A stretch of 64,000 bases of DNA from IMG/VR virus record IMGVR_UViG_3300032954_000003, positions 18,847 to 82,846 of that record; one strand, 5' to 3'. Below the pieces are notes generated by a model that searched no databases, was not told the origin of the DNA, and saw only the letters and a program-made list of their open reading frames with translations. This document shows, in pieces, positions 655 to 45,583 of this stretch. Source of the stretch: a virus (lineage: Duplodnaviria > Heunggongvirae > Uroviricota > Caudoviricetes). How positions within the stretch are numbered: position 1 is the stretch's first letter; each line of letters starts with the position of its first letter. The position numbers were made by a program, and so were the translations under genes.

Positions 655-825
655 GCCTGCTCCTTACTTAGGTTGGATCTTGCACGCATAGCGTATCGAC
701 ATCCGACGGTATCGTCAACCCCTCAGACGCAACTCAGCCCGAAAAGGGCCAGACTCAACTAGACCTTGAAGGATCGGCTAGAATCCTTCTTTAGGTGATT
801 GCTCGCACCAAACATGGAGGGAATC

Positions 826-1224
826 ATGGACGTTGATCCTGCCCTAGACCGGCGCATCCTGAATCTACGGATCGCAGGCGGAGGCATTACCGGCCTTGCC
901 GATCAGTTCGGCCTCACCGATCAAGAGGTGCTAGACGCGTGCAAGCGAGCCCTAGATGCGATGGAAGCGCGCGAACCTATTGCTCAGGTCCGAGACCTTG
1001 AACTAGCGCGAATCGACCTCTGCCTTCGAGCGGTCATCCCGCTTGCTCTCCAAGGCAATCTCACGGCAGCGCGCACAGCTCGTGAATTCATGCAGGATCG
1101 CCGCGACATTTACGGGCTGGATAATCTACGGCCGAAACCTGAAAGTGAACATGATCGGCTGGATGCTCTCAATGAGCGACGGCGAACACGTCGCACACGC
1201 GGTATGCCACACGCTAAGAAATAA
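826..1224 (+). CDS. terminase small subunit candidate (HTH DNA-binding)
   Basis: GGAGGGA RBS precedes the ATG at 826. HTH-like segment ILNLRIAGGGITGLADQFGLTDQEV. The stop overlaps the terminase large subunit start (TAATG), a typical terS-terL arrangement. Confidence 0.45.
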   Translation: MDVDPALDRRILNLRIAGGGITGLADQFGLTDQEVLDACKRALDAMEAREPIAQVRDLELARIDLCLRAVIPLALQGNLTAARTAREFMQDRRDIYGLDNLRPKPESEHDRLDALNERRRTRRTRGMPHAKK

Positions 1225-3731
1225 TGCAAGGTAATCAGTTCCCACGCATCAGTTGTTTACCAAAATACAGCTGCTCAGCAGGCGAAGAAGCAGTTGAGCT
1301 ATGTAGCATGATCGGCTTAGAGCTTGATCCCTGGCAACAATTTGTGCTGGAGAACTCGCTGGGTGAGGATGAGGAGGGCAAATGGGCTGCTTTTCAGGTA
1401 GGTTTAGTTGTAGCTCGACAGAACGGAAAGGGGCCTGCAAGTGTCACTACTCCCGTTCTAACGGGAAATGGGTGGACAACACTAGGAGAAGTAGAACCTG
1501 GTGACAGTGTTTACGGTGGAGATGGACGACCTATCAAGGTTGTTGCGTGTTCTGAGGTCTATCTAAATGAGCCGTGTTATGAGGTTACATTTACAGATGG
1601 GGCAAAGCATGTAGTTACGGCCGATCATTTATGGTGGGTAAAACATAAGGACCGGCGCCAGTGGGAAGCAGTTCAGACTGCTGATATCGCGCGAAAGTTT
1701 GCCAGTGAACGTGCAAATGGTCGGATGGAATATCTTTGGCGCGTACGTTGTGACGCAGTGCCAGAAACTCCAGAGGCTGATTTACCGATTCACCCATACA
1801 TCTTAGGGCTATGGTTAGGTGATGGGACTAGTAGGCGACCAGAACTAACCGTCTCAGACGAAGACAGACCGTTTATGCGTGGTGTCTTACAGGCTACAGG
1901 GCATGTAGTTACAAACGAGTCTCTAGGCAATAGAGAGCATGATCCTTGGCATATTGCTTTCCGTCTTGGACCAAAGATGAACAAAGAAGGCTTTCCAGCA
2001 CGACTGCGGTGGCTCAATGTTTATCGAAATAAGCACATTCCGGAGATTTATCTGGCGGCCTCAAAGACTCAAAGATTGGAACTGCTTCGTGGCTTGATGG
2101 ATACAGACGGCTCAGTTGCGACTACGAATAAGTCACCACAAGTTGAATTTTCGACATCCAGTGAGGCTCTTGCACTTGGTTTTCAACGTCTGGTAAGAAG
2201 TCTTGGTATTCGAGTCACACCGAAACGACGCAAGACAACGCACAAAGATAACTGGCGTTTCCTATGGACCCCGACTTTCAACCCGTTTAGATTGCCACGT
2301 AAGGCTACGAAATACAAGGCACCTCTGTCTAAACGTCAAGAGTTGATGAGTGTTATTGATGTGCAACCTGTTTCCTCAGTTCCGACACGCTGCATTCAAG
2401 TAGACAGTGAGGATGGTGTTTATCTACTTGGGCACCATTTCACCCCTACACACAACTGTGTGCTCCAGGCGCGTGAGCTTGCAGGCTTGTTTCTAGATTC
2501 ACTTAGTGAACGATTCATGCTTCATAGCGCACATCGTTACGACACAAGCCAAGAGCATTTCCACCGCTTAGTCCAACGTATTGAAGGTTCAGAAGAATTT
2601 AGCAAGCGTGTAAAGCGGATCTCGCGTTCGCATAATGAAGAAGGCATTACTATGTTGGATGGACGCCAACTTCGTTTCCGCGCTAGAACGTCCGTAGGCG
2701 GTCTCGGTTTCACCATCGACACTTTGGTATGCGATGAGGCTCAAATCCTGCCACAGAGCTTCCTAGCAGCTCTCCTGCCTACTCTCAGTGCCAGACCGAA
2801 CCCTCAGATATGGTTTGCAGGTACAGCAGCTGACCAAGAGCGCCACGAAGATGCCATTGTTCTAGCTACTCTAAGAGAGCAAGCACAAAGAGGTGACACT
2901 CAGAGTGTTTGCTACATGGAGTGGTCATTCGACTCAGATCATCCGCTCAAGGTTACACCGACACAATCGCTTGACCCTGAGGTCTGGGCACAAGCAAATC
3001 CCTCAATGGGGATTCGCATAGCCGATAGCTACATCGGCAAAGAGCGCGAGGCACTAGCACCGCGAGACTTTGCTGTTGAACGTTTGGGTGTAGGTGACTG
3101 GCCACGCACTGACGGACTAGAGGGTGTCATGATTACACCCGAAGCATGGGCCGCATGTACGGATGAGGCGTCTCAGATCGTCGGTCCTGTATGCTTTGCA
3201 GTTGACGTGACTCCCGATCGTTCTTATACAGCTATCGCTGTCGGCGGATTCCGTGAGGACGGTAAGACTCACGTTGAGATCGTGGAGCACAAACGTGGCA
3301 CAGGCTGGGTTGTGAAGCGGCTCGATGAATTACTTACAAATCATCGAGGCGTAGCGATCTGTGATGCTACTGGGCCTGTGGCTTCGTTGTTGCCAGAGCT
3401 AAAGGAGCAAAGACCATACGAAGAACCAGTGCTTCTCAGCTCACGTGAGCAAGCTCAAGCTTGTGGGTACATCTATGATGCTGTAGAGCAGGATACAATT
3501 CGGCATATAGGGCAAAGGGAGCTTTCAGATGCCATACGCGTTGCTGTAAGCCGTCCTCTCGGGGATGCATGGGCTTGGTCTAGGCGTAACGCTACAGGCG
3601 ATATTTCACCGCTTGTAGCGGCCACAATGGCACTATGGGGGACGCAAACATTAGAGATAAACGAACCAGCAGTAATCGACACGGCGGCTATAGAAGAACG
3701 TATGCGTCAGGAAGGTACGCTGGTAACCTAG
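1224..3731 (+). CDS. terL: terminase large subunit, interrupted by an intein
   Basis: P-loop VVARQNGKG, Walker B LVCDEAQ, and C-terminal RNaseH-like nuclease aspartates (AVDVTPDRSYTAIAV). The roughly 340-aa insert has Hint blocks and two LAGLIDADG motifs. Confidence 0.85.
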   Translation: MQGNQFPRISCLPKYSCSAGEEAVELCSMIGLELDPWQQFVLENSLGEDEEGKWAAFQVGLVVARQNGKGPASVTTPVLTGNGWTTLGEVEPGDSVYGGDGRPIKVVACSEVYLNEPCYEVTFTDGAKHVVTADHLWWVKHKDRRQWEAVQTADIARKFASERANGRMEYLWRVRCDAVPETPEADLPIHPYILGLWLGDGTSRRPELTVSDEDRPFMRGVLQATGHVVTNESLGNREHDPWHIAFRLGPKMNKEGFPARLRWLNVYRNKHIPEIYLAASKTQRLELLRGLMDTDGSVATTNKSPQVEFSTSSEALALGFQRLVRSLGIRVTPKRRKTTHKDNWRFLWTPTFNPFRLPRKATKYKAPLSKRQELMSVIDVQPVSSVPTRCIQVDSEDGVYLLGHHFTPTHNCVLQARELAGLFLDSLSERFMLHSAHRYDTSQEHFHRLVQRIEGSEEFSKRVKRISRSHNEEGITMLDGRQLRFRARTSVGGLGFTIDTLVCDEAQILPQSFLAALLPTLSARPNPQIWFAGTAADQERHEDAIVLATLREQAQRGDTQSVCYMEWSFDSDHPLKVTPTQSLDPEVWAQANPSMGIRIADSYIGKEREALAPRDFAVERLGVGDWPRTDGLEGVMITPEAWAACTDEASQIVGPVCFAVDVTPDRSYTAIAVGGFREDGKTHVEIVEHKRGTGWVVKRLDELLTNHRGVAICDATGPVASLLPELKEQRPYEEPVLLSSREQAQACGYIYDAVEQDTIRHIGQRELSDAIRVAVSRPLGDAWAWSRRNATGDISPLVAATMALWGTQTLEINEPAVIDTAAIEERMRQEGTLVT
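1434..2456 (+). other. intein with LAGLIDADG homing endonuclease inside terL
   Basis: Block B VTADHLW, LAGLIDADG motifs LGLWLGDG and LLRGLMDTDG, and C-terminal ...TPTHN followed by Cys+1. The N-terminal boundary is ambiguous (no Cys1; Ser73 or a class-3-like start). Confidence 0.7.
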
Positions 3732-3741
3732 AAAGGAAGTT

Positions 3742-3990
3742 ATGGCAGCTAAGACTGAAGCAGCAGGTTTTGTAACTAAGGATGCAGAGACACCTAAGAC
3801 TGAACCGGCATTTCCGGCAGACGCACCAGGGCAGGTTGTCCTAGAGGGTGGCTTCAACTTCTCAGTGCAAGACATCGAGAAGGTTTATCAACAAGTAACC
3901 AACGGCAGTAATGAGTTCATCACACTCGTTGACAGCAATGGGTCAAAGCGTCTAGTTCGCGCTTCGTCTGTGATGACTCTCTCAGAGTAA
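3742..3990 (+). CDS. hypothetical protein
   Basis: GAAAGGAAG RBS precedes the ATG; clean 82-aa ORF. Confidence 0.5.
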   Translation: MAAKTEAAGFVTKDAETPKTEPAFPADAPGQVVLEGGFNFSVQDIEKVYQQVTNGSNEFITLVDSNGSKRLVRASSVMTLSE

Positions 3991-4000
3991 GGAGACAAGC

Positions 4001-5087: not shown

Positions 5088-5861
5088 TTAGCCGGCTAGA
5101 GACTGTTTTAGATAAGACGCATGAAATTCTAAGTAGTCAGCGAGTGCACGGAGACGTATGGGATCGTCGCCAGCATTGCCCATAGCGGCATTACATTGAT
5201 GACAGAGTAATGCTCGGACGCGATTTGTCTTGTGGCAGTGGTCTACATGTAGGTGTTGGCCCTTGCCACCAGCTTCCTCGTTGGTTCGCTTGCAGACAGC
5301 ACAGACTCCACCTTGCCGCTCTAGCATGTGCTCATATTCTTCGATAGTCATATCGTAGAACTTGCGAAGTGTACGCTTCCGGTTCTTGAGACGACGCTTG
5401 GCTGGATCACTCATGCGTTCCCTATCCCGTACTCGGTCGCAAGTTCGGCAATAAGACTTATGCGAGCCATCGCGTGGCTTCCCACATTTTGTACAGGTGT
5501 AATTTGCAGGTTCGAGCTTCGCTCGGCACGTCGGGCAGAGGTGCTTACTGCGCCGTGGGGCAGTAAGCAGCGGCGCACCACATTCCTTGCAAGTTTGCTC
5601 GCATATCTCACAAAAACTGTTTGAAGCGCCGCGCTTAGGTCGAATGCCACATCGTGCACACAGTTTTGCTCGTTTAGGCCGACAATCATTACATAATGGC
5701 TTGTAGCATCCATTAGCCATTAGTGGTGCAGGTTTGCCGCACTTCCGACACTTGCCGTAGCACTGATCGCATAGCGCATGGTTACTGCTAGAACCATCTC
5801 GCGCGGGCCGTTGTTTGCAACGGCTACAAATCACTCGACGCATCCTTGGGGATTCTAGCAT
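5088..5861 (-). CDS. endonuclease VII-like resolvase with N-terminal array of CxxC zinc-ribbon repeats
   Basis: C-terminal HVDHCH...LLCHQCN is the T4 gp49/endo VII signature. The N-terminus has more than 8 CxxC pairs. The ATG at 5861 has an AGGAG RBS; the track start at 5927 is an upstream extension. Confidence 0.7.
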   Translation of the reverse strand: MLESPRMRRVICSRCKQRPARDGSSSNHALCDQCYGKCRKCGKPAPLMANGCYKPLCNDCRPKRAKLCARCGIRPKRGASNSFCEICEQTCKECGAPLLTAPRRSKHLCPTCRAKLEPANYTCTKCGKPRDGSHKSYCRTCDRVRDRERMSDPAKRRLKNRKRTLRKFYDMTIEEYEHMLERQGGVCAVCKRTNEEAGGKGQHLHVDHCHKTNRVRALLCHQCNAAMGNAGDDPIRLRALADYLEFHASYLKQSLAG

Positions 5862-6121
5862 ATATCTCCTAAGGAATTCAAAGGAGGTGATGCCCGCCCA
5901 TGTCCAGTCATGTCGTTGCAACAACACGCGGAAATATTTCGCTAGAGCAGCGTGGAGCTAGCCCATATCTGGAATGGGGCTAACGCGTGACAGCGCCGCC
6001 GCCTCCCGGGGCAGTTTAGGTTGGAGGTAACATCGGTGGACTTCACGTCACCACTGAATCAGCGACTCAGGTAGCAGCCGTCTATGGCTGTGTATCGCTA
6101 TTAGCTAACTCGATCGCATCT

Positions 6122-8461
6122 TTGCCGATCCGAGTCCTAGACGCACCTCCTGTAGTTTCACTAAACGCCAAAGAAAAGAAGAAGATTCCTCAGCTTCTTC
6201 AGAGTCCCTATGAGCCAATCAGCTTTACTGATTGGATTGTCTGCATGATGTGGTCCCTAGCGCTACGTGGGAACTTCTTTGGACAGATCGTGGAACGTGA
6301 TCGTCTAGGTTATCCAACCCAGATCATGCCGGTCAACCCAGATTTAGTAAAACCCCATCAAGACCCCTCAGGGGTTATTGAATGGCGCTTTGCTGGCAAA
6401 GTAGTACCAACCGAAGATGTTTTTCACATCCGCTATCAGTACATGCCAGGAATGCTCTTAGGATTAAACCCTATCCAAGTCTGCAAGTACAGTTTTGGTT
6501 TAGGCCACGTCCTAGACGTACACGCAGAGACAACCTTCCGCAATAGCGCTAACCCACTAGGTGTTCTCGAAGCTAAGGGAACACCATCGCAGAATGCGGT
6601 TGAACAGATGATCCAGCGCTGGCACTCAATGCACCAAGGAGTGCGTCAGTCCAGTCTGCCGGCAATCCTGACTGAGGAAACGAAATTCAATCCGATCTCA
6701 ATTTCCCCAGAAGATCAACAACTGCTCGAAAGCAGGAAATACTCAGCCGAGGAAATATGTGGCATTGTTTTCCAAGTACCACCATTCATGCTTGGTATGA
6801 CCCAACGCTCAACCTGCCTTGCTGCTGGTACACCTGTGCTGACTGATAAAGGTCCGCGAGCAATTGAGACGATCAAAGCTGGTGAAAGGGTTTGGTCCCT
6901 CGACGAGTCTCAGGCTCGGTTTGTGTTGTCTAAGGTTGTAGCGCAAGAGAAGACTGGCTGTGACCCAATATTAACGATCAAGACGCGCCCTGGCCGTACG
7001 CTACGAGCAAATGCCAAACACAAAGTTCTAGTAAGGCGCAAATTCGCTAATCCACAACGGGGCGTTGGGAAGTATCGCTGTGTAGAGTGGCGCAACATAT
7101 GGACGACAGCGGGCGAGTTAAAGGTGGGTGACTATCTCATCGCCGGGCATGGTCTACCCGCAAGCGACAAGCGCACGGCTCCAAATGGACGAGAGCTAAC
7201 GCCGCAGTTTATGGAGTTCGCGGGGTTACTCATCGGTGATGGCAACGTCATCAAAGGCAACAAAGGTGTACCGGCGGTTGTAACGATTGCGCGTCATCGT
7301 GATGCCCGTTACATGGATGTTTACCGGCGCGGTGCTGAACGCGAGTTCAACGCAACCCATGGCGTTGGTACGGCAACTGAACGTAAGTTATCACCGATTA
7401 GGCTTCGTGAGTATGAGCGTTGCACGACGTTTTCATCCGTTACGGCAGCATCTGAGCTGGCAAGTCTCGGTTTCAGCGGTACAGCACATACAAAGCGTGT
7501 ACCTGAATGGCTGTTTGGCGTTGCGCCTGAGTTGCAACTCGCCTTCTTGCGTGGCTATGCTGACGCTGATGGTTCGGTTACTGAACGCGGAGAACTTATC
7601 TTCTGTTCATGCAACCCAGAGCTATTACAGGATGTGCGTCACCTTTGTATTCAGCTTGGGATTCCTGTAGGTCATCTGTGTGAGCATGATACGGCTGGCA
7701 CAGGGATGGTGATGGGGCGTAAAGTGACGCGTGGGAAGATGTATCGTCTAAATTGTTGCGATGCTGATTCGAACTTGCGCATTGGAACGCATGATTCACA
7801 GGACCTGAAGCGTTTGCAGCGGGCCAAGCGTTCGCCTAGACGCCAATGGTGGGATGCTGATTATCAGGGACGTGGTGGCAGCCCAGAGGCTCGTCCTGGA
7901 ACTTACTTCGACATTGAAGGCGCTCGTCTTCAGTGTATTACATCCATTGAGAAGTCTGCACCAGAGCCCGTGTATGATCTTACAGTCGAAGGTACCCATA
8001 CATTCTTGGCTGATGGTTTGGTTGTTCACAACAGCTACGGCCGTGGTATAGAGCAACAAGAGAGAACCTTTATTGCCAATACCCTCTCTGGATACCTCTG
8101 TCGCGTTGAGAGAGCGCTTACAGAATGCTTACCTGACGGGGAATACGTGAACTTTGACATACGTCACCGAGTCCGTGGCACGGCTGTAGAACGTGCTCAG
8201 CAAGCAAGCCTCCTAATGCTGTGCGGTGCTTGGTGCGCTGATGACTCTAGAGCCTTATTTGATATGCCTCCACTACCAAACGGAGAAGGCAAAATCTTCA
8301 ATACACCACTCAACACTGAGCTGCTTGAGAAGGCGCTTCTCGAAGTCAAGCAGATGGAAAAAGAAGAAGATGAACCAGAAGCGCCACCTCAGAACCCACA
8401 GTTTATGCCGGTTCCGGGTGGCGGTAGGGGTCCAAAAGCTCCTGCTGTTCCTAGGAGTTAG
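6122..8461 (+). CDS. portal protein (HK97-family-like) interrupted by an intein; true N-terminus probably upstream of 6122
   Basis: Portal-like segments flank a 406-aa insert with Hint blocks and LAGLIDADG motifs. The conserved portal N-terminal motif (AAVYGCVSLLANSIASLP) lies in-frame upstream of the TTG at 6122. Confidence 0.8.
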   Translation: MPIRVLDAPPVVSLNAKEKKKIPQLLQSPYEPISFTDWIVCMMWSLALRGNFFGQIVERDRLGYPTQIMPVNPDLVKPHQDPSGVIEWRFAGKVVPTEDVFHIRYQYMPGMLLGLNPIQVCKYSFGLGHVLDVHAETTFRNSANPLGVLEAKGTPSQNAVEQMIQRWHSMHQGVRQSSLPAILTEETKFNPISISPEDQQLLESRKYSAEEICGIVFQVPPFMLGMTQRSTCLAAGTPVLTDKGPRAIETIKAGERVWSLDESQARFVLSKVVAQEKTGCDPILTIKTRPGRTLRANAKHKVLVRRKFANPQRGVGKYRCVEWRNIWTTAGELKVGDYLIAGHGLPASDKRTAPNGRELTPQFMEFAGLLIGDGNVIKGNKGVPAVVTIARHRDARYMDVYRRGAEREFNATHGVGTATERKLSPIRLREYERCTTFSSVTAASELASLGFSGTAHTKRVPEWLFGVAPELQLAFLRGYADADGSVTERGELIFCSCNPELLQDVRHLCIQLGIPVGHLCEHDTAGTGMVMGRKVTRGKMYRLNCCDADSNLRIGTHDSQDLKRLQRAKRSPRRQWWDADYQGRGGSPEARPGTYFDIEGARLQCITSIEKSAPEPVYDLTVEGTHTFLADGLVVHNSYGRGIEQQERTFIANTLSGYLCRVERALTECLPDGEYVNFDIRHRVRGTAVERAQQASLLMLCGAWCADDSRALFDMPPLPNGEGKIFNTPLNTELLEKALLEVKQMEKEEDEPEAPPQNPQFMPVPGGGRGPKAPAVPRS
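6815..8032 (+). other. intein with LAGLIDADG homing endonuclease inside the portal gene
   Basis: Starts with Cys (STCLAAGTPVLT). Block B TLRANAKH, LAGLIDADG motifs FAGLLIGDGN and FLRGYADADGS. Ends VYDLTVEGTHTFLADGLVVHN followed by Ser+1. Confidence 0.8.
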
Positions 8462-12010: not shown

Positions 12011-12808
12011 GTGTCGCAGGTTGAGAGAACATGCAAGTGTGAGGGCTGCACCCGCAATTGTGTGGCAAAGGACTTGTGTAGTTTGCACTATCAGCGATTA
12101 TCTCGCTATGGAAGCACGGAATTGCCGCAACGGGTCATCATCTGTCGTATCGCTCAATGTGGACGTCCCGCAAAAGCGAAGGGTTTGTGTGCCGCACATT
12201 ATCAGCGACAAAGAGAAGGGCGAATAGTCGATTCGCCAGTTAAGGCCAAGAAGGAGAGACTCGCTACCTGCAAGGTTATTGGGTGTCAACGTAAAGCTGC
12301 TGCACGCGACTTATGCAAGGCTCATTACAGGCGGTGGACCAAAAGCGGTGACGTTGAAGCAAATAGACCGATTGCATTAAAGCAGAAGCAACCCTCTGTA
12401 TTTTGCAAGGTAGAAGGGTGTCAGCGAAAGAGTTCATCACACAATGGCTATTGCAAGATGCACGGTTATCGAATAAGACGCTATGGCAATCCTGGCTCTG
12501 TTTATCCGCTACACGCACAAAAGGGAACTGGCACTGTGCGCGATGGCTACAGGTTTATGAGCATTCAAAGCGAGAATGGTTCCCGTCTGCGCGTAGCTGA
12601 GCATCGTCTAGTTATGGAAGCATTTCTAAATAGACCACTGCGACCGTTTGAGACAGTTCATCATATCAACGGTATTCGGGATGACAACCGTATAGAGAAT
12701 CTCGAATTATGGACTCATGGTCATCCTCGTGGTCAACGACCAGAGGACTTGGTGGCGTGGGTTGTTGAGCAGTATCCCGAGTTAGTGCGAGCAGCGCTGA
12801 ATCCTTAG
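12011..12808 (+). CDS. HNH homing endonuclease with four N-terminal Cys/His zinc-binding repeats
   Basis: C-terminal AEHRLVME...VHHINGIRDDNRIENLELW is the HNH_3-type motif. Four repeats of CxGCxR....LCxxHYxR. GTG start with a GAGGT RBS. Confidence 0.75.
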   Translation: MSQVERTCKCEGCTRNCVAKDLCSLHYQRLSRYGSTELPQRVIICRIAQCGRPAKAKGLCAAHYQRQREGRIVDSPVKAKKERLATCKVIGCQRKAAARDLCKAHYRRWTKSGDVEANRPIALKQKQPSVFCKVEGCQRKSSSHNGYCKMHGYRIRRYGNPGSVYPLHAQKGTGTVRDGYRFMSIQSENGSRLRVAEHRLVMEAFLNRPLRPFETVHHINGIRDDNRIENLELWTHGHPRGQRPEDLVAWVVEQYPELVRAALNP

Positions 12809-12836: not shown

Positions 12837-13394
12837 ATGAGGCAGCCGTACGATCCGGCCTTTTACAACACTGCCGAATGGCGCACTTTCCGTAAGCACA
12901 AGTTGCTTAGCGTGGGCTTTCATTGTGAGCGGTGTGACGCAGACTTGCGTTCTGTACCAGCGGAGGTACACCATGTCATTTATGAGCGATTTGGCGGGGA
13001 AGAGCGTCTTGCTGATGTTGAAGCGCTTTGTAGCCGTTGTCACGATGAGGTTGAGCTAGTGAAGGCTGGTGACAAAGCGATTCGTGCCCAGCTAGAAATA
13101 GACAGCAAGATTCAACGTGCCACTGAATTAGACGTGCGAGCTGACGAATTACGGCATGAAATAAGAGAGAATCTTGACATCTTAGAACGCGAAGCTGAAA
13201 AGAAACAGCGCATTGGACTGGATGTGTTTATCAGGCATCTTCTAGAACAAGAAGTTGCAGGGCGCCAAGTTTTGGGGATGGGAGGCTTGCCAGCCCCTAG
13301 CCAAGAGTTACTTGAACAGATGCTTGAACGTACACATCGCGCACGAGAACTTTTAGTCGAGAAATACTCTCCTCCTGCTAGTGAAGCAGCCTAA
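12837..13394 (+). CDS. HNH endonuclease with C-terminal coiled coil
   Basis: HCERC...EVHHVIYERFGGEE...CSRCH pattern (H-N-H with two CxxC pairs). GGAGGA RBS. Confidence 0.7.
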   Translation: MRQPYDPAFYNTAEWRTFRKHKLLSVGFHCERCDADLRSVPAEVHHVIYERFGGEERLADVEALCSRCHDEVELVKAGDKAIRAQLEIDSKIQRATELDVRADELRHEIRENLDILEREAEKKQRIGLDVFIRHLLEQEVAGRQVLGMGGLPAPSQELLEQMLERTHRARELLVEKYSPPASEAA

Positions 13395-18830: not shown

Positions 18831-18857
18831 GGCGAACGCCAGAAAGGAACGACAAAG

Positions 18858-24906: not shown

Positions 24907-26373
24907 ATGCCACTTGGGATAAAAGTTACAACCGGAGAGACTTCTGGTTCAGCCGGTTCATCCATTGTTACTGGTACCGCCTTCATTATCGGTTTGGCGG
25001 ACTGGGGTGTATTCACACCTACGCTTGTACGTAGTGCTGCTGGCTATCTAGCCGCTTTTGGCGAACGTACCGCTACATCATCCAAACTATTCGATGCCGT
25101 TGAAACGTTCTTCCAGCTTGGTGGTGAACGTGCGTACATCCAGCGTTGCGGCAAAGAAGCTTCTGGTGAAAAAGCAAAACCAGCCGCTCAGCTCAAAGGA
25201 GCGTCTCACGCGGAACAGATCAAAGTTGTTGCTAAGTACGTCGGAACACTTGGGAACAAACTCAAGATCGAAGTAGTTGAAAACGAAGCCAAAACGGAAT
25301 ATGAAGTCCTAATTCTCAACGAAGCTAGCGAACTTCTGGAAACCACTGGGCTTCTCAAAGAAGCTAAGCAGCTTGTCGGTAAGAGTTCGGCTTGGGTTAC
25401 ATACGCGGAAGGGACGAAATTCGCCGAAGGTGAAACGGAAAAACTCGAAAAACTAACAGCGAAAGCTTTCTCTGGTGGCACTAACCCCGCCGCTTCTATC
25501 ACCTCAGCTCTCGCCAAAGAATCCCTAGAACTTCTGCCTAAAACACTAGGTCCAGGCCAAGTCCTTATTCCTTCAGTGACTGGAGAACCGACTGAAGAAG
25601 CTACCCACAAACTTATGGGTGAACACTCGGAAAAAAACAACCGTGTGGCTCTCTGTGATCTTACGGATTCTTCTTCATCTACCACACTGGTCTCTAACAA
25701 AAAAACCTACGCCAACAACATCGCCGCCTATATGGAGTTTCACTCAAGTTCGTGCATCATCCCTGGTGTAACGCTAGGTACTACACGAACAGTTGCCGGC
25801 TCAGCCGTTGTAGCTGGGTTGTGCGCACAGGTGGCGAAAACAGAAAACGACAATCTCGCGCCAGCCGGTGTGACCTATTCACTTGCACCATTCGTAACTG
25901 GTTTTACCAACACATTTTCACTGACTCAGATGCAGACTCTAGGAGAAAACGGCATCAACGCTTTTGCGGAACGGCAGAGCAAACCTGTTCTCTACAACTT
26001 TGTGTCTGCAATCCCAGTAACAACGGACAAGATTTTCTGGCAGTTCTCAGCTAGCCGCGAGCGCATGCACCTCGTATGGGCTGCGGAAGAAATTGCAGAA
26101 ACCTACTTGTTCAAGCAGATAGACGGCCGCAAACAGCTCCTAGGACGCTTCCAGGGCGCATTAGGGGCGATGTTAGGGCGCCAGTGGACCCTCGGGGCTC
26201 TCTACGGTGAAACAGCCGCAGAAGGCGGCGTAGTGTACGTGGGCGAACCGATCAATACGCCAACGACTATCGCCGAAGGACAGCTAAACGCTGAACTGAA
26301 AGTTCGCATTTCACCATTTGCTGAGAGCATCGCCATCACCATTATCAGCTCTCCAATTACAGAAGCGATCTGA
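24907..26373 (+). CDS. tail sheath protein
   Basis: 488 aa. N-terminus MPLGIKVTTGETSG...GTAFIIGLADWGVFTPTLVRSAAGYLAAFG fits the sheath N-terminal consensus. Followed by a tube gene. Confidence 0.7.
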   Translation: MPLGIKVTTGETSGSAGSSIVTGTAFIIGLADWGVFTPTLVRSAAGYLAAFGERTATSSKLFDAVETFFQLGGERAYIQRCGKEASGEKAKPAAQLKGASHAEQIKVVAKYVGTLGNKLKIEVVENEAKTEYEVLILNEASELLETTGLLKEAKQLVGKSSAWVTYAEGTKFAEGETEKLEKLTAKAFSGGTNPAASITSALAKESLELLPKTLGPGQVLIPSVTGEPTEEATHKLMGEHSEKNNRVALCDLTDSSSSTTLVSNKKTYANNIAAYMEFHSSSCIIPGVTLGTTRTVAGSAVVAGLCAQVAKTENDNLAPAGVTYSLAPFVTGFTNTFSLTQMQTLGENGINAFAERQSKPVLYNFVSAIPVTTDKIFWQFSASRERMHLVWAAEEIAETYLFKQIDGRKQLLGRFQGALGAMLGRQWTLGALYGETAAEGGVVYVGEPINTPTTIAEGQLNAELKVRISPFAESIAITIISSPITEAI

Positions 26374-36642: not shown

Positions 36643-36947
36643 CTCTCATCCCGCATTTCGCTGCGCCCTTTGCCTTTAGTGCGAAGGGCGTAGTGAATGT
36701 TACCGAACAAGATAGTCAGCAGGAAATCTCAGACTGCATCTTCAATGTTGCTAGTTGCTTTGAAAACTTCCGCGAAGACTTGCCCGAATTTGGCATACCG
36801 GATCTAACATTCGAACAGATCCCACTGAATCTCGAAGCACTACAAGCGGCACTAAACCGCTGGGAACCGCGAGCGGAACTTACGCTTGAAGAAACAGAAG
36901 AACTTATGAATCCAGCAGCGCGTGCTGTATCGATCGAAGTGTTCTAG
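36639..36947 (+). CDS. baseplate wedge protein, GPW/gp25 family
   Basis: Segment FGIPDLTFEQIPLNLEALQAALNRWEPRAEL matches the GPW_gp25 signature (WEPR). Confidence 0.6.
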   Translation: MTLIPHFAAPFAFSAKGVVNVTEQDSQQEISDCIFNVASCFENFREDLPEFGIPDLTFEQIPLNLEALQAALNRWEPRAELTLEETEELMNPAARAVSIEVF

Positions 36948-38317
36948 AGAAGCTCTGCACGTTGGCGTATATCGAGTATGTGGTGCTGCCGTTCCAGCTT
37001 GCCGTCCTCAAAAAGCTTTAGCAGATAGTTGATGCCATCTGCTCCCTCCGCCAACGTTGCCAAAACACCCCTCCGGATAGTCAGCTTTAGCCGTCCGGCT
37101 TTGCTTGTCTTATCGGAACCTAGTGGTTCCTTATAGACAGGGTGCCACTCGCCTTCGCGCTTTTGTGCGCTGCACTTGAACGCAAACCTCTGGGTGTCGC
37201 GGTTGAGCTTTTGCAGTAGACCACCACCCATACCGAAAACCAAGTTCTCAGCAGCCCAACCAGCCTCTGCGGTAACGTCGAGGATCTGTTGGATATCGGC
37301 TGGTGTTAGACCATCGCCCCATAGGACGCGGACGTGGGGATCGAGTACGGTTCGCTTGCCGTTTGAGGTGCCACCAAACGCATCGCCTAGTGTCTGAAGA
37401 ATCCAGGTTACCAGCTCGCCTGGTGTTTTGTGTGCATCAGTGACTGAGTCAGGTCGTATAACAACAGGACCACCCTCGCGCTGCATGATCTCTTTCTTAC
37501 GCGCACAGATGTTGTATACGCAGTCATAGACGTTGTAGCTATCTACTACGATGGATAGCGGTCCTGAAGGGTACTGTTCGAGGATGTGACTAATCATGTC
37601 ATCCTCTCCCTCAGGGCCAAGCGCAGTCATTACTGAGTGCTCGGTCGCTGGTACGCTAGATCCAAGCTCTTCGTGGTAGCTGTCGCGCAACAGCTGGATA
37701 GCTGGCAACGTGTCTGTACCTAGGAAATTCACAAGGTGTGCCGCTCCACCTATAGCTGCTGCATCATGCGTTGTAGCGCCTCGATAGCCAAAGTCATGGA
37801 GCATAAAAGGCAAACCATTGAGCGAGCTTCCTGTATCCTCTAGTGCCTTTTTCAGCATTATCTTCACCTCTCGGCTAAGGGTTGCCACCGTGCATGGGTA
37901 CCACAAATGTGTTAGGTAGCTCTCGATGGCATTTGTTAGCCAGTAGCACTCGGGATCAGTGTTCTCGACCGTCATCAAGACATTGCCAGTCGGGATAGCC
38001 ATTCCCTCAGGGACAGCTCTTATGAGCAAAGGAAGTTTGCCATCATGCCAGTTGATGATGTGTTCCCACCCCTCAGTGTTAATCATGTCATCCGACCCGA
38101 AGTGCTTGCTTGCAAGCTGTTGCGCCTCTTGCAGGTGCTCGTCGGTTACTACCTCACCCGTGAGACCGCGTAGCAGGTGCTGTAAGCCGAAGAAAACGGT
38201 GTAGGGGTACCTTGCCCCTACTCGACTCTCGAAGTAGCTGTAAACGTGTTCAGTGCCCTCTGGATATTGTTTCCAGTGCGTGAGCTTGTATGAATCGGTT
38301 GCAAGTATGAGGTTCAT
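36944..38317 (-). CDS. nadV: nicotinamide phosphoribosyltransferase (NadV/NAMPT)
   Basis: Hallmark N-terminus MNLILATDSYKLTHWKQYP; 457 aa. Confidence 0.8.
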   Translation of the reverse strand: MNLILATDSYKLTHWKQYPEGTEHVYSYFESRVGARYPYTVFFGLQHLLRGLTGEVVTDEHLQEAQQLASKHFGSDDMINTEGWEHIINWHDGKLPLLIRAVPEGMAIPTGNVLMTVENTDPECYWLTNAIESYLTHLWYPCTVATLSREVKIMLKKALEDTGSSLNGLPFMLHDFGYRGATTHDAAAIGGAAHLVNFLGTDTLPAIQLLRDSYHEELGSSVPATEHSVMTALGPEGEDDMISHILEQYPSGPLSIVVDSYNVYDCVYNICARKKEIMQREGGPVVIRPDSVTDAHKTPGELVTWILQTLGDAFGGTSNGKRTVLDPHVRVLWGDGLTPADIQQILDVTAEAGWAAENLVFGMGGGLLQKLNRDTQRFAFKCSAQKREGEWHPVYKEPLGSDKTSKAGRLKLTIRRGVLATLAEGADGINYLLKLFEDGKLERQHHILDIRQRAELL

Positions 38318-44116: not shown

Positions 44117-45583
44117 ATGGCTGAATTCATAAACGTAAACGTCGAAACTGAACCGATCCAGCTTGCCGATAATGCGCTAGATAGGTTGGCGGAAGAACTC
44201 GAAGCCAAGGGAATCATTGGATGGGAACCTAATGAAGCCAACCTAGAAGTCATCCTCATCAATATCTTGGCGATGATGGCTAATAACGCTGCGCTAGTCG
44301 CAGCAGTTGTACCAGAAGCTGTCTTCCGCCAATATGGCACTCAGCTTTTCAAACTCCTGTTCAACGAAGGTGCCTACGCCAGCGCTAGCACCAAATGGAA
44401 ACTCCTAGAAGAAGGCGGCAAATACCCAGCACGGGAAATTGAAGCTGGGTTAACTATCGAAGGCTCAGGCAAGGCGTTCTATGTAGAAAAAGCGGTTGAA
44501 GTCAAAGAAGGTGAACATGAAGCGACGGTACAGGTCATCGCTGCCGAACGCGGTGAAGAATATAACGGCATCACAGGAGTGCTATCGCCTGTAAACAACA
44601 TCAACTTCGTATCGGAAATCACGATTACCGCCGAAACAACAGGCGGCGCAGATCAGGAAAACGATACCGAATACATGAAACGTCTAGCTACACAGCTAGA
44701 ACTACAAGCACCACGTCCCATTACAGCAGCCAATTTTGCAACGTTTGCTTTGGATGCTCCTAGCACTGTGCTACCTACTGGTGTTGTTATCGGTAGAGCG
44801 ACAGCGATAGACGGCTATAACCCAGAAGTCCATACCTTCGAAGCCAAAGTAGTCAGCACTGAAACGACAATGGCTGAAGTGACTAGCTTTACCGGCATCA
44901 CCGCTGAAGCAAGCTCGCCGCAGAAACACCCTGGCACGCGTCTCAAAGGTCCTGGTATCGCTGAAGGTACAACCGTGGTCTCAGTCAACGAAGGTGCCAA
45001 AACCTTGGTGATGAGTAAAGCGGCGATCTCAAGTCCTGGGAAAAAAGAAAAATACGAAGCGATCGGCTCCTACGAAAACCAGCGTACTGTAACCGTATTC
45101 GTGACAACTAGACAAGGTAAAGAAGTGTCTAAAGCTGGCCGTGAAGCGGTACAGAAATATCTTGAATCGTATCGTGAGATCAACTTCAAAGTCTTCGTTG
45201 AACCACCCAACTACAACGAAGTGCGCGTGACTGCCGTTGTACATGTTCTCTCAGGGTTCAATGAAGCGACCACTCTGTCTAACGTCAAAACTGCCATCGA
45301 AAATCTCCTCTCGCCTGAAACATGGGGTAACCCGACCAACCGCAATGAAGATGAAAGTTCGGGGTGGATCAACGCCACTGAAGGCTTCAACGTTGTGCGT
45401 TACAACCAGATCATTGGAGCGATCGAGGCGGTACAGGGAGTTGCCTACGTGCTAGCAGGCAGCTCTGGACTTGCTATAGGACTGGAAGAAGCACCTGGCA
45501 GTAAAACGGCCGATCTAACGCTGTTTGGACCAGCGCCACTGCCGGAAACCAAACCAAGCAATATCAAAGTAACAGCGGGCTAA
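44117..45583 (+). CDS. baseplate J-like protein
   Basis: 488 aa. Position and composition fit P2 gpJ / T4 gp6-like proteins. Downstream of the W/gp25 gene after the insertion. Confidence 0.55.
   Translation: MAEFINVNVETEPIQLADNALDRLAEELEAKGIIGWEPNEANLEVILINILAMMANNAALVAAVVPEAVFRQYGTQLFKLLFNEGAYASASTKWKLLEEGGKYPAREIEAGLTIEGSGKAFYVEKAVEVKEGEHEATVQVIAAERGEEYNGITGVLSPVNNINFVSEITITAETTGGADQENDTEYMKRLATQLELQAPRPITAANFATFALDAPSTVLPTGVVIGRATAIDGYNPEVHTFEAKVVSTETTMAEVTSFTGITAEASSPQKHPGTRLKGPGIAEGTTVVSVNEGAKTLVMSKAAISSPGKKEKYEAIGSYENQRTVTVFVTTRQGKEVSKAGREAVQKYLESYREINFKVFVEPPNYNEVRVTAVVHVLSGFNEATTLSNVKTAIENLLSPETWGNPTNRNEDESSGWINATEGFNVVRYNQIIGAIEAVQGVAYVLAGSSGLAIGLEEAPGSKTADLTLFGPAPLPETKPSNIKVTAG

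Follow-up and report, generated by a model that had tools for sequence, protein, structure and literature searches.

Class 3 inteins are recognised by a non-nucleophilic residue 1 combined with a Trp-Cys-Thr (WCT) triplet (PMC2807308, PMC5050341), and their original description associates Ser or Thr with the +1 position, the first residue after the intein (PMC2807308). A class 3 intein with Cys at +1, that of Burkholderia vietnamiensis IcmO (Bvi IcmO), has been shown to follow the class 3 order of steps, and in 2016 it was reported as the only one known (PMC5222942). Within phage genomes, one group of inteins occupies the terminase large subunit (TerL) of cluster J mycobacteriophages at a site termed TerL1-b, which lies downstream of the classic P-loop site (TerL1-a) by a single residue (PMC5050341). 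For the TerL1-b intein of phage BAKA, splicing was efficient when the intein was placed between MBP and GFP in a reporter (Kelley et al. 2016, PMC5050341), and a lysate with this intein specifically cut the Courthouse allele (PMC5050341). Here, we describe a related locus in a stretch of 64,000 nucleotides (nt), hereafter the window, which covers positions 18,847 to 82,846 of the IMG/VR virus record IMGVR_UViG_3300032954_000003 and represents a phage structural module from a metagenomic contig of 108,815 bp. We conclude with high confidence that nt 1434..2456 of the window encode a mobile class 3 intein, whose HINT domain is split by a two-motif LAGLIDADG endonuclease and which resides in the Walker A loop of TerL at the TerL1-b site. 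This conclusion is directly supported by an in-frame insertion that is missing in the closest homologs, by the presence of all class 3 catalytic residues and by a predicted fold that combines an intein with a LAGLIDADG domain; splicing and DNA cleavage would be expected of the encoded protein by analogy with homologous inteins.

The boundaries of the insertion follow from a comparison with terminases that lack it. Searching 5.8 billion proteins returned TerL homologs of two lengths, long (about 800-980 amino acids, aa) and short (about 475-525 aa), and 70 of the best 120 matches have the empty site. When the window TerL was aligned with six long and seven short homologs, RQNGKG ran straight into [S/A/V/G][IL]LEARELAGLFL in the short group, and the long group held about 340 additional residues at this point. 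Throughout the empty-site set (70/120), RQNGKG is joined straight to xILEAREL and the 341-aa segment is missing, with the residue after GKG or GKN being G in 28 sequences, A in 20, S in 19, V in two and T in one. Because of this alignment, the intein can be placed from Pro71 to Asn411 of the precursor, with Cys412 replacing the residue that follows GKG (vertical bars mark junctions throughout). The preliminary description of this DNA, which was made from its letters and reading frames, had proposed an intein with a LAGLIDADG endonuclease in the TerL P-loop; this is borne out by Pfam and by the empty-site alignment, every motif that it quoted is present, and its coordinates, 1434-2456, are exact and correspond to codons 71-411. 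It had also cautioned that the junction cannot be fixed by eye and had suggested an alignment to intein-free terminase homologs, which indeed settles the junction as GKG|P...HN|C and the spliced P-loop as NGKG-CVLQ. The same junction is fixed by the register of block A (Pro1, Thr6, Val8 and Gly13 in intein numbering), and it agrees with a published pair of alleles, in which Baka gp6 reads VSRQNGKG|DLGHNTQVLTTDGW...IPTHN|SILEAIELAG (intein coordinates 2948..3994; Table S2, Kelley et al. 2016, PMC5050341) and the intein-free Courthouse gp10 reads VSRQNGKG|SILEALELAG. The window insertion hence lies at the TerL1-b position, one residue past the Walker A Lys-Gly of TerL. The two closest TerL exteins (62-63% identity) lack an intein, and a syntenic relative (L004, from a contig of 90.6 kb), likewise with an empty allele, has a TerL of 496 aa.

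We then read the MAFFT alignment of the 50 intein-bearing homologs in the numbering of the window intein. His65, Trp67, Arg319, Cys320, Thr339, His340 and Asn341 are invariant in all 50 relatives, and with them the complete WCT triplet, namely Trp at block B position 12 (B12), Cys at block F position 4 (F4) and Thr at block G position 5 (G5). Residue 1 of the window intein is Pro71, that is, neither Ser, Thr nor Cys, and among the relatives this position is most often Pro (26 sequences) or Asp (12), followed by Cys (three) and by Leu, Ser, Ala, Gln, Arg and Asn in one to two each, two sequences being gapped. Both the missing nucleophile at the N-terminal junction and the class 3 resemblance, which had been suspected from the sequence alone, are thereby confirmed by the empty-site alignment, the block A register and the conservation of the triplet. 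Class 1 inteins start with Cys, Ser or Thr and usually carry Asp at F4, where the window intein has Pro1 and Cys F4, and class 2 inteins of the KlbA type combine Ala1 with the absence of a WCT triplet, so that only Cys+1 is shared with them. The sequence features expected of any intein are also found here, as the in-frame insertion is absent from homologs and His65, His340, Asn341 and a nucleophile at +1 are all present. Furthermore, block F aligns to VPVRCVEVD of the Mycobacterium chimaera DnaB1 intein (MchDnaB1), and the WCT residues align to the same positions in its structure 6RIX. The +1 residue is Ser in 36 relatives, Thr in eight and Cys in six, the last being the state of the window intein, and Cys occurs at this position in none of the 70 empty alleles. 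The usual class 3 companion, Ser or Thr at +1, is therefore replaced by Cys in the window, a feature that lies outside the signature itself. Likewise, the Thr at block B position 7 (B7; Thr62 in a TxxH motif) recurs in 1/50 relatives, the remainder having G, S, A or D, and a block B Thr is generally missing from class 3 inteins (PMC6195587). Cys+1 and Thr at B7 are the sole mildly unusual traits of the window intein.

The splicing blocks enclose a homing-endonuclease domain, which Pfam recognises as LAGLIDADG_3 (E 1e-13) and Hom_end (E 2e-8). Across 45 sequences, G125, W127, L128, G129, G131, L217, G220, D223, D225 and G226 are invariant and D130 is kept in at least 90%; because D130 and D225 are conserved in this way, both metal-binding acidic residues are retained, and the sequences suggest purifying selection on the domain, as would fit an active enzyme. 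An AlphaFold2 model of the 341 intein residues, built from an alignment of 44 homologs, reached a mean pLDDT (predicted local distance difference test) score of 95.3 and a predicted template modelling (pTM) score of 0.92, with no segment below 50 in pLDDT, and its endonuclease part has a secondary structure of the alpha-beta-beta-alpha-beta-beta-alpha type. Foldseek searches against the PDB with this model matched PI-SceI over the whole two-domain body (E 6e-21, template modelling (TM) score 0.74-0.77 by query length), class 3 DnaB mini-inteins for the splicing domain (TM score 0.87-0.88 by target length), and I-DmoI and I-Tsp061I for the endonuclease domain. The modelled splicing domain thus appears to have a HINT fold, matching PI-SceI, VMA inteins and class 3 DnaB inteins at a Foldseek probability of 1.00. 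This agrees with phmmer against the PDB, which at E 4e-22 to 5e-21 found the M. chimaera DnaB1 structures 6RIX and 6RIY and the M. smegmatis DnaBi1 structure 6BS8, all three called class 3 by their authors (PMC7664689, PMC6195587). Taken with the Pfam matches and the 70 homologs that lack the segment, the identification as an intein lies well beyond chance. The alignment to these DnaB inteins is ungapped over residues 4-70 and resumes in a second stretch, VPTRCIQVD...FTPTHN against VPVRCVEVD...VPTHN, which finishes on the terminal Asn.

The interrupted gene is read as one frame, in which the order of motifs is FQVGLVVARQNGKG70, P71ASVTTPVLTGNGW, VTADHLWW, ILGLWLGDGT, LLRGLMDTDGS, VPTRCIQVDSEDGVYLLGHHFTPTHN411, C412VLQARELAGLFLD and TLVCDEAQ. 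In the alignment of six long and seven short homologs described above, R65, Q66, N67, G68 and K69 of the N-extein are invariant. Fusing the two exteins (...VVARQNGKG-CVLQARELAG..., 494 aa) gives a protein that is recognised by PHROG 9 ('terminase large subunit') over aa 3-473 (E 5.5e-73), and whose best annotated relatives are the terminases of cluster J mycobacteriophages (Baka, Thibault, Optimus, Redno2 and others), at about 40% identity over 97% of the length. The Pfam family TerL_ATPase (PF03354) stayed below threshold on the spliced extein (E 0.021), and so we base the TerL assignment on PHROG 9 and on the annotated phage matches. On the full precursor, Pfam detected the endonuclease domain, with no match to terminase or HINT/intein-splicing models, and NCBIfam gave nothing but matches to intein-containing proteins far under the cut-off. 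A megablast of the terL gene against 50,697 phage records returned no match, and thus no close sequenced relative in that set.

Several patterns among the homologs bear on mobility and selection. A nucleophile (Ser, Thr or Cys) stands at +1 in 50/50 intein-bearing alleles and in 20/70 empty ones, the remainder of the latter having G, A or V, which is the expectation if splicing is required. In 42/42 comparisons the intein is more similar to that of the window than the extein is (means 53.7% vs 40.7% identity). The guanine-cytosine (GC) fraction of the intein is 0.477, compared with 0.516 in its exteins and 0.528 over the window, placing the intein in the lowest 0.5% of equal-sized windows; as a sign of foreign origin this is weak, if consistent. 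The DNA at the insertion site is conserved, with CAGAAYGGNAAGGGN on the 5' side and 41/60 nt matching the L004 empty allele, and the intein-free site of the window would, once fused, read CGACAGAACGGAAAGGGG|TGTGTGCTCCAGGCGCGT.

Beyond the TerL1-b site, three homologs (P0027, P0033 and P0040) hold homologous class 3 inteins at GK|x, that is at TerL1-a, in another terminase subfamily with the C-extein S[LV]I[IA]E, which suggests that the two neighbouring P-loop sites are both used by one intein lineage. Five related terminases (P0011, P0013, P0018, P0020 and P0021) are 1190-1250 aa long and evidently carry a second intein elsewhere in addition to the one in the P-loop. Another three (P0051, P0059 and P0069) are about 800-850 aa long with an empty P-loop site, and their insertion must therefore be at another place.

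How else could the insertion be read? The preliminary description had offered a class 1 intein with Ser1 as an alternative, which here would begin at Ser73 (GKGPA|S) with the serine as N-terminal nucleophile. A serine does stand two residues past the proposed start (P71-A72-S73), Ser1 or Cys1 is known from a few WCT inteins (PMC2807308), and three relatives of the window intein begin with Cys and one with Ser. However, splicing from Ser73 would leave Pro-Ala in the P-loop, unlike all 70 intein-free homologs, and position 3 is A, S, W, N, K, D or G in the relatives, with no conserved nucleophile. Since such a start would also break the block A register (Thr6, Val8, Gly13), which together with the ungapped DnaB alignment from residue 4 sets residue 1 as Pro71, and since the published BAKA junction falls immediately after GKG, we regard a Ser73 start as scarcely credible. 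The cysteine at +1, common to just 6/50 relatives, invites a different thought, as it is the nucleophile of the direct attack in class 2 (KlbA) inteins: Cys412 might attack the Gly70-Pro71 bond itself, leaving Cys320 a supporting role. Against such a route, which we consider very improbable, stands the full WCT triplet, invariant among the relatives and missing from the known class 2 inteins (PMC2807308); moreover, in Bvi IcmO, the one Cys+1 class 3 intein tested, Cys+1 was unable to take over from Cys F4, and block F had to precede block G (PMC5222942).

A decayed, non-splicing remnant or a domesticated insertion domain, in a terL gene that is either non-functional or works with its insert, would have a precedent in the class 3-like Arsp-FB24 Arth_1007, a proven pseudogene (PMC3196547), and the sequence at hand comes from a metagenomic contig. 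Yet Arth_1007 is without Cys F4 and His B10, both of which the window intein has, the reading frame is unbroken through 835 codons, and the catalytic and LAGLIDADG residues are all kept. Given in addition that an essential enzyme has its Walker A loop interrupted by the insert, and that the predicted structure of this insert is confidently folded, decay has very little probability. A few observations do weigh against the assignment to a mobile class 3 intein, which we nevertheless favour. Pfam intein-splicing models gave no match to the divergent HINT domain of the window, the Cys at +1 is at odds with the Ser/Thr rule as first described for class 3, and the compositional difference between intein and flanks is small. 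Among the homologs found, none was a near-identical empty allele by which recent homing could be shown; the mechanism, finally, is transferred from homologous inteins.

If the window intein follows the class 3 pathway, Cys320, aided by His65 and Trp67, would attack the Gly70-Pro71 bond and take up the N-extein as a thioester, giving the block F branched intermediate. The N-extein would then be handed to the side chain of Cys412, so that the block G branched intermediate would here likewise be a thioester, before cyclisation of Asn341, assisted by His340, would release the intein. An S-to-N acyl shift would restore a native peptide bond and yield a TerL of 494 aa with an intact P-loop. Because the 341 residues split the Walker A loop of the precursor, packaging should depend on splicing. 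During co-infection, the LAGLIDADG domain of the freed intein would cut intein-free terL at the conserved CAGAAYGGNAAGGGN|..., and recombinational repair would then copy the intein into the cut allele.

One further residue deserves mention. The cysteine at position 48 of the window intein is non-catalytic and aligns with Cys48 of M. smegmatis DnaBi1 (Msm DnaBi1), which is required for splicing and, under oxidative stress, becomes disulfide-bonded to the catalytic Cys118 (PMC6195587). Kelley et al. (2018) termed the DnaBi1 residue non-conserved; in the terminase inteins it is kept in 49/50 relatives. By analogy, terminase maturation may be subject to a redox effect. It is tempting to speculate further that the window holds a class 3 intein of full length, endonuclease included, which in nature uses a route of two thioesters (at Cys320, then at Cys+1) and at the same time places DNA packaging under a redox switch through Cys48 and Cys F4, with the Cys+1 inteins forming a minority lineage; we think this combination rather unlikely. 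Were it true, oxidative conditions in the host would reversibly stall terminase maturation, and the Cys+1 lineage (6/50) would make the class 3 rule of Ser or Thr at +1 a mere sampling effect.

Table. Features of the terL locus and of the surrounding structural module, in window coordinates.
Feature	Position (nt)	Strand	Remarks
TerL precursor gene	1224..3731	+	single unbroken open reading frame; 835 aa with intein, 494 aa once spliced
N-extein, aa 1-70	1224..1433	+	ends with Walker A / P-loop ARQNGKG, nt 1413..1433
Intein assigned to class 3, 341 aa, Pro1 to Asn341 (aa 71-411)	1434..2456	+	absent from 70 homologs; PDB matches; AlphaFold2 model; Foldseek
Block A, PASVTTPVLTGNG	1434..1472	+	Pro1 (1434..1436) non-nucleophilic; Gly13 invariant in 50 relatives
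Cys48, non-catalytic	1575..1577	+	Cys in 49/50 relatives; aligns with Cys48 of Msm DnaBi1
Block B, VTADHLWW	1614..1637	+	Thr62 (B7), His65 (B10, 1626..1628), Trp67 (B12, 1632..1634, W of WCT)
LAGLIDADG homing-endonuclease domain, about intein aa 108-300	1755..2333	+	between the two halves of the HINT domain; Pfam, model, Foldseek
First LAGLIDADG motif (block C), YILGLWLGDGT	1797..1829	+	acidic Asp130; aligns to first-motif region of PI-SceI
Second LAGLIDADG motif (block E), LELLRGLMDTDGS	2076..2114	+	acidic Asp225; inside the Pfam LAGLIDADG_3 match
Block F, VPTRCIQVDSEDGVYLLGHHF	2379..2441	+	Cys320 (F4, 2391..2393), C of WCT, predicted initiating nucleophile
Block G, TPTHN|C	2442..2459	+	Thr339 (G5, T of WCT), His340, Asn341, Cys+1 (2457..2459)
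C-extein, aa 412-835 and stop codon	2457..3731	+	remaining ATPase domain and nuclease domain
Walker B, TLVCDE, in C-extein	2721..2738	+	D504 and E505 invariant in homolog alignment
141-aa open reading frame	799..1224	+	overlaps terL start codon; small-terminase-subunit position; only match PHROG 645 'RNase E', E 2e-13
Endonuclease VII-like gene, free-standing	5088..5927	-	PHROG 2633, E 6e-31
Portal gene, 779 aa	6122..8461	+	Pfam Phage_portal
Portal intein, 406 aa, class 1	6815..8032	+	Cys1, RST|CLAAGTPVLT; end LVVHN|SYGRG; Intein_splicing E 1e-12, LAGLIDADG_3
HNH gene, free-standing	12011..12808	+	Pfam (HNH_3 / HNH across this gene and the next)
HNH gene, free-standing	12837..13394	+	Pfam (HNH_3 / HNH across this gene and the previous)
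Protease	13409..		structural module
Head proteins			structural module
Tail sheath	24907..26373		
Tape measure	30294..		
Nicotinamide phosphoribosyltransferase (NAMPT) gene	36944..38317	-	opposite strand inside tail region
Baseplate J	44117..45583		

The genes around terL (Table) give the locus its setting. The 'RNase E' label of PHROG 645 on the open reading frame upstream is probably uninformative. The portal gene harbours a second intein, unrelated to that of TerL and canonical for class 1, with a LAGLIDADG domain of its own; the portal of L004 has 435 aa and is intein-free. In L004, TerL, two small open reading frames, portal and protease are contiguous, and the window has about 5 kb more between portal and protease. 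With three free-standing nucleases, the packaging and head module looks to be loaded with selfish elements. Moreover, judging from its sheath and baseplate J genes, the phage appears to have a contractile tail, despite a terminase that is nearest to cluster J, which is listed under the siphoviruses (PMC5050341 Table S1).

For annotation, the gene is best entered as encoding a terminase large subunit that carries a class 3 intein and whose mature form has 494 aa and the junction NGKG-CVLQ. The window intein adds a divergent, metagenomic example from outside the mycobacteriophages to the TerL1-b site, and together with five relatives it supplies more natural cases of Cys+1 in class 3, of which a single one was known as of 2016. 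A class 3 intein that tolerates Cys+1 and carries Thr at B7 may hold minor interest for engineering; the window intein opens no new question.

Placed beside described systems, the window intein is a new, divergent member of a group that has already been catalogued and experimentally tested at the identical site. The cluster J TerL1-b inteins of BAKA gp6 and Thibault gp6 (PMC5050341) share with it the host family and the insertion point after RQNGKG, as well as the WCT triplet, the terminal THN and the LAGLIDADG endonuclease, at lengths of 347-349 aa compared with 341 aa in the window. A tblastn search with the intein alone gave 49.4% identity to Thibault and EricMillard over 99% of the length (E 3e-103). 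The identity to the HokkenD intein is 51.5%. Between BAKA and the window, the inteins are about 49-51% identical and the exteins about 38%. The two inteins differ in that BAKA has Asp1, Ser+1 and Gly at B7, where the window has Pro1, Cys+1 and Thr. Their phages differ as well, since that of the window is myovirus-like, with a tail sheath and baseplate, and has a GC content of about 53%, whereas cluster J is listed as siphoviruses of about 61% GC (Table S1, PMC5050341).

In its catalytic layout, the window intein corresponds to the class 3 prototype, the MP-Be DnaB intein of mycobacteriophage Bethlehem (Tori et al. 2010, PMC2807308), which likewise has 341 aa and Pro1. Likened by its published description, the prototype has an identical catalytic numbering (His65, Trp67, Cys320, Thr339, His340, Asn341), and both inteins carry a LAGLIDADG endonuclease inside a phage ATPase. 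The hosts, in contrast, are a DnaB-like helicase and a terminase, and the prototype has Thr+1 and Ser at B7 in place of Cys+1 and Thr. Cys+1 is instead what the window intein shares with Bvi IcmO (Tori and Perler 2016, PMC5222942), a class 3 intein in which it occurs naturally and both branched intermediates are thioesters; set beside the window intein by description only, Bvi IcmO is an endonuclease-free mini-intein of 142 aa in a plasmid IcmO gene.

Among solved structures, the closest by sequence are Msm DnaBi1 (6BS8) and Mch DnaB1 (6RIX/6RIY), which resemble the window intein in HINT fold, WCT triplet, Cys48 and P-loop location. The mycobacterial DnaB-1 mini-inteins are nevertheless unlike it in being endonuclease-free (139-145 aa), in having Ala1 and Ser+1 and in residing on a bacterial chromosome, and their insertion point, GK|S, precedes that of the window intein by one P-loop residue. 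For the whole architecture of HINT and LAGLIDADG domains, the best match to the predicted structure is PI-SceI, the yeast VMA1 intein, which differs from the window intein in being of class 1 with Cys1, in possessing an extra DNA-recognition region and in having a eukaryotic host, and which is 16-19% identical to it.

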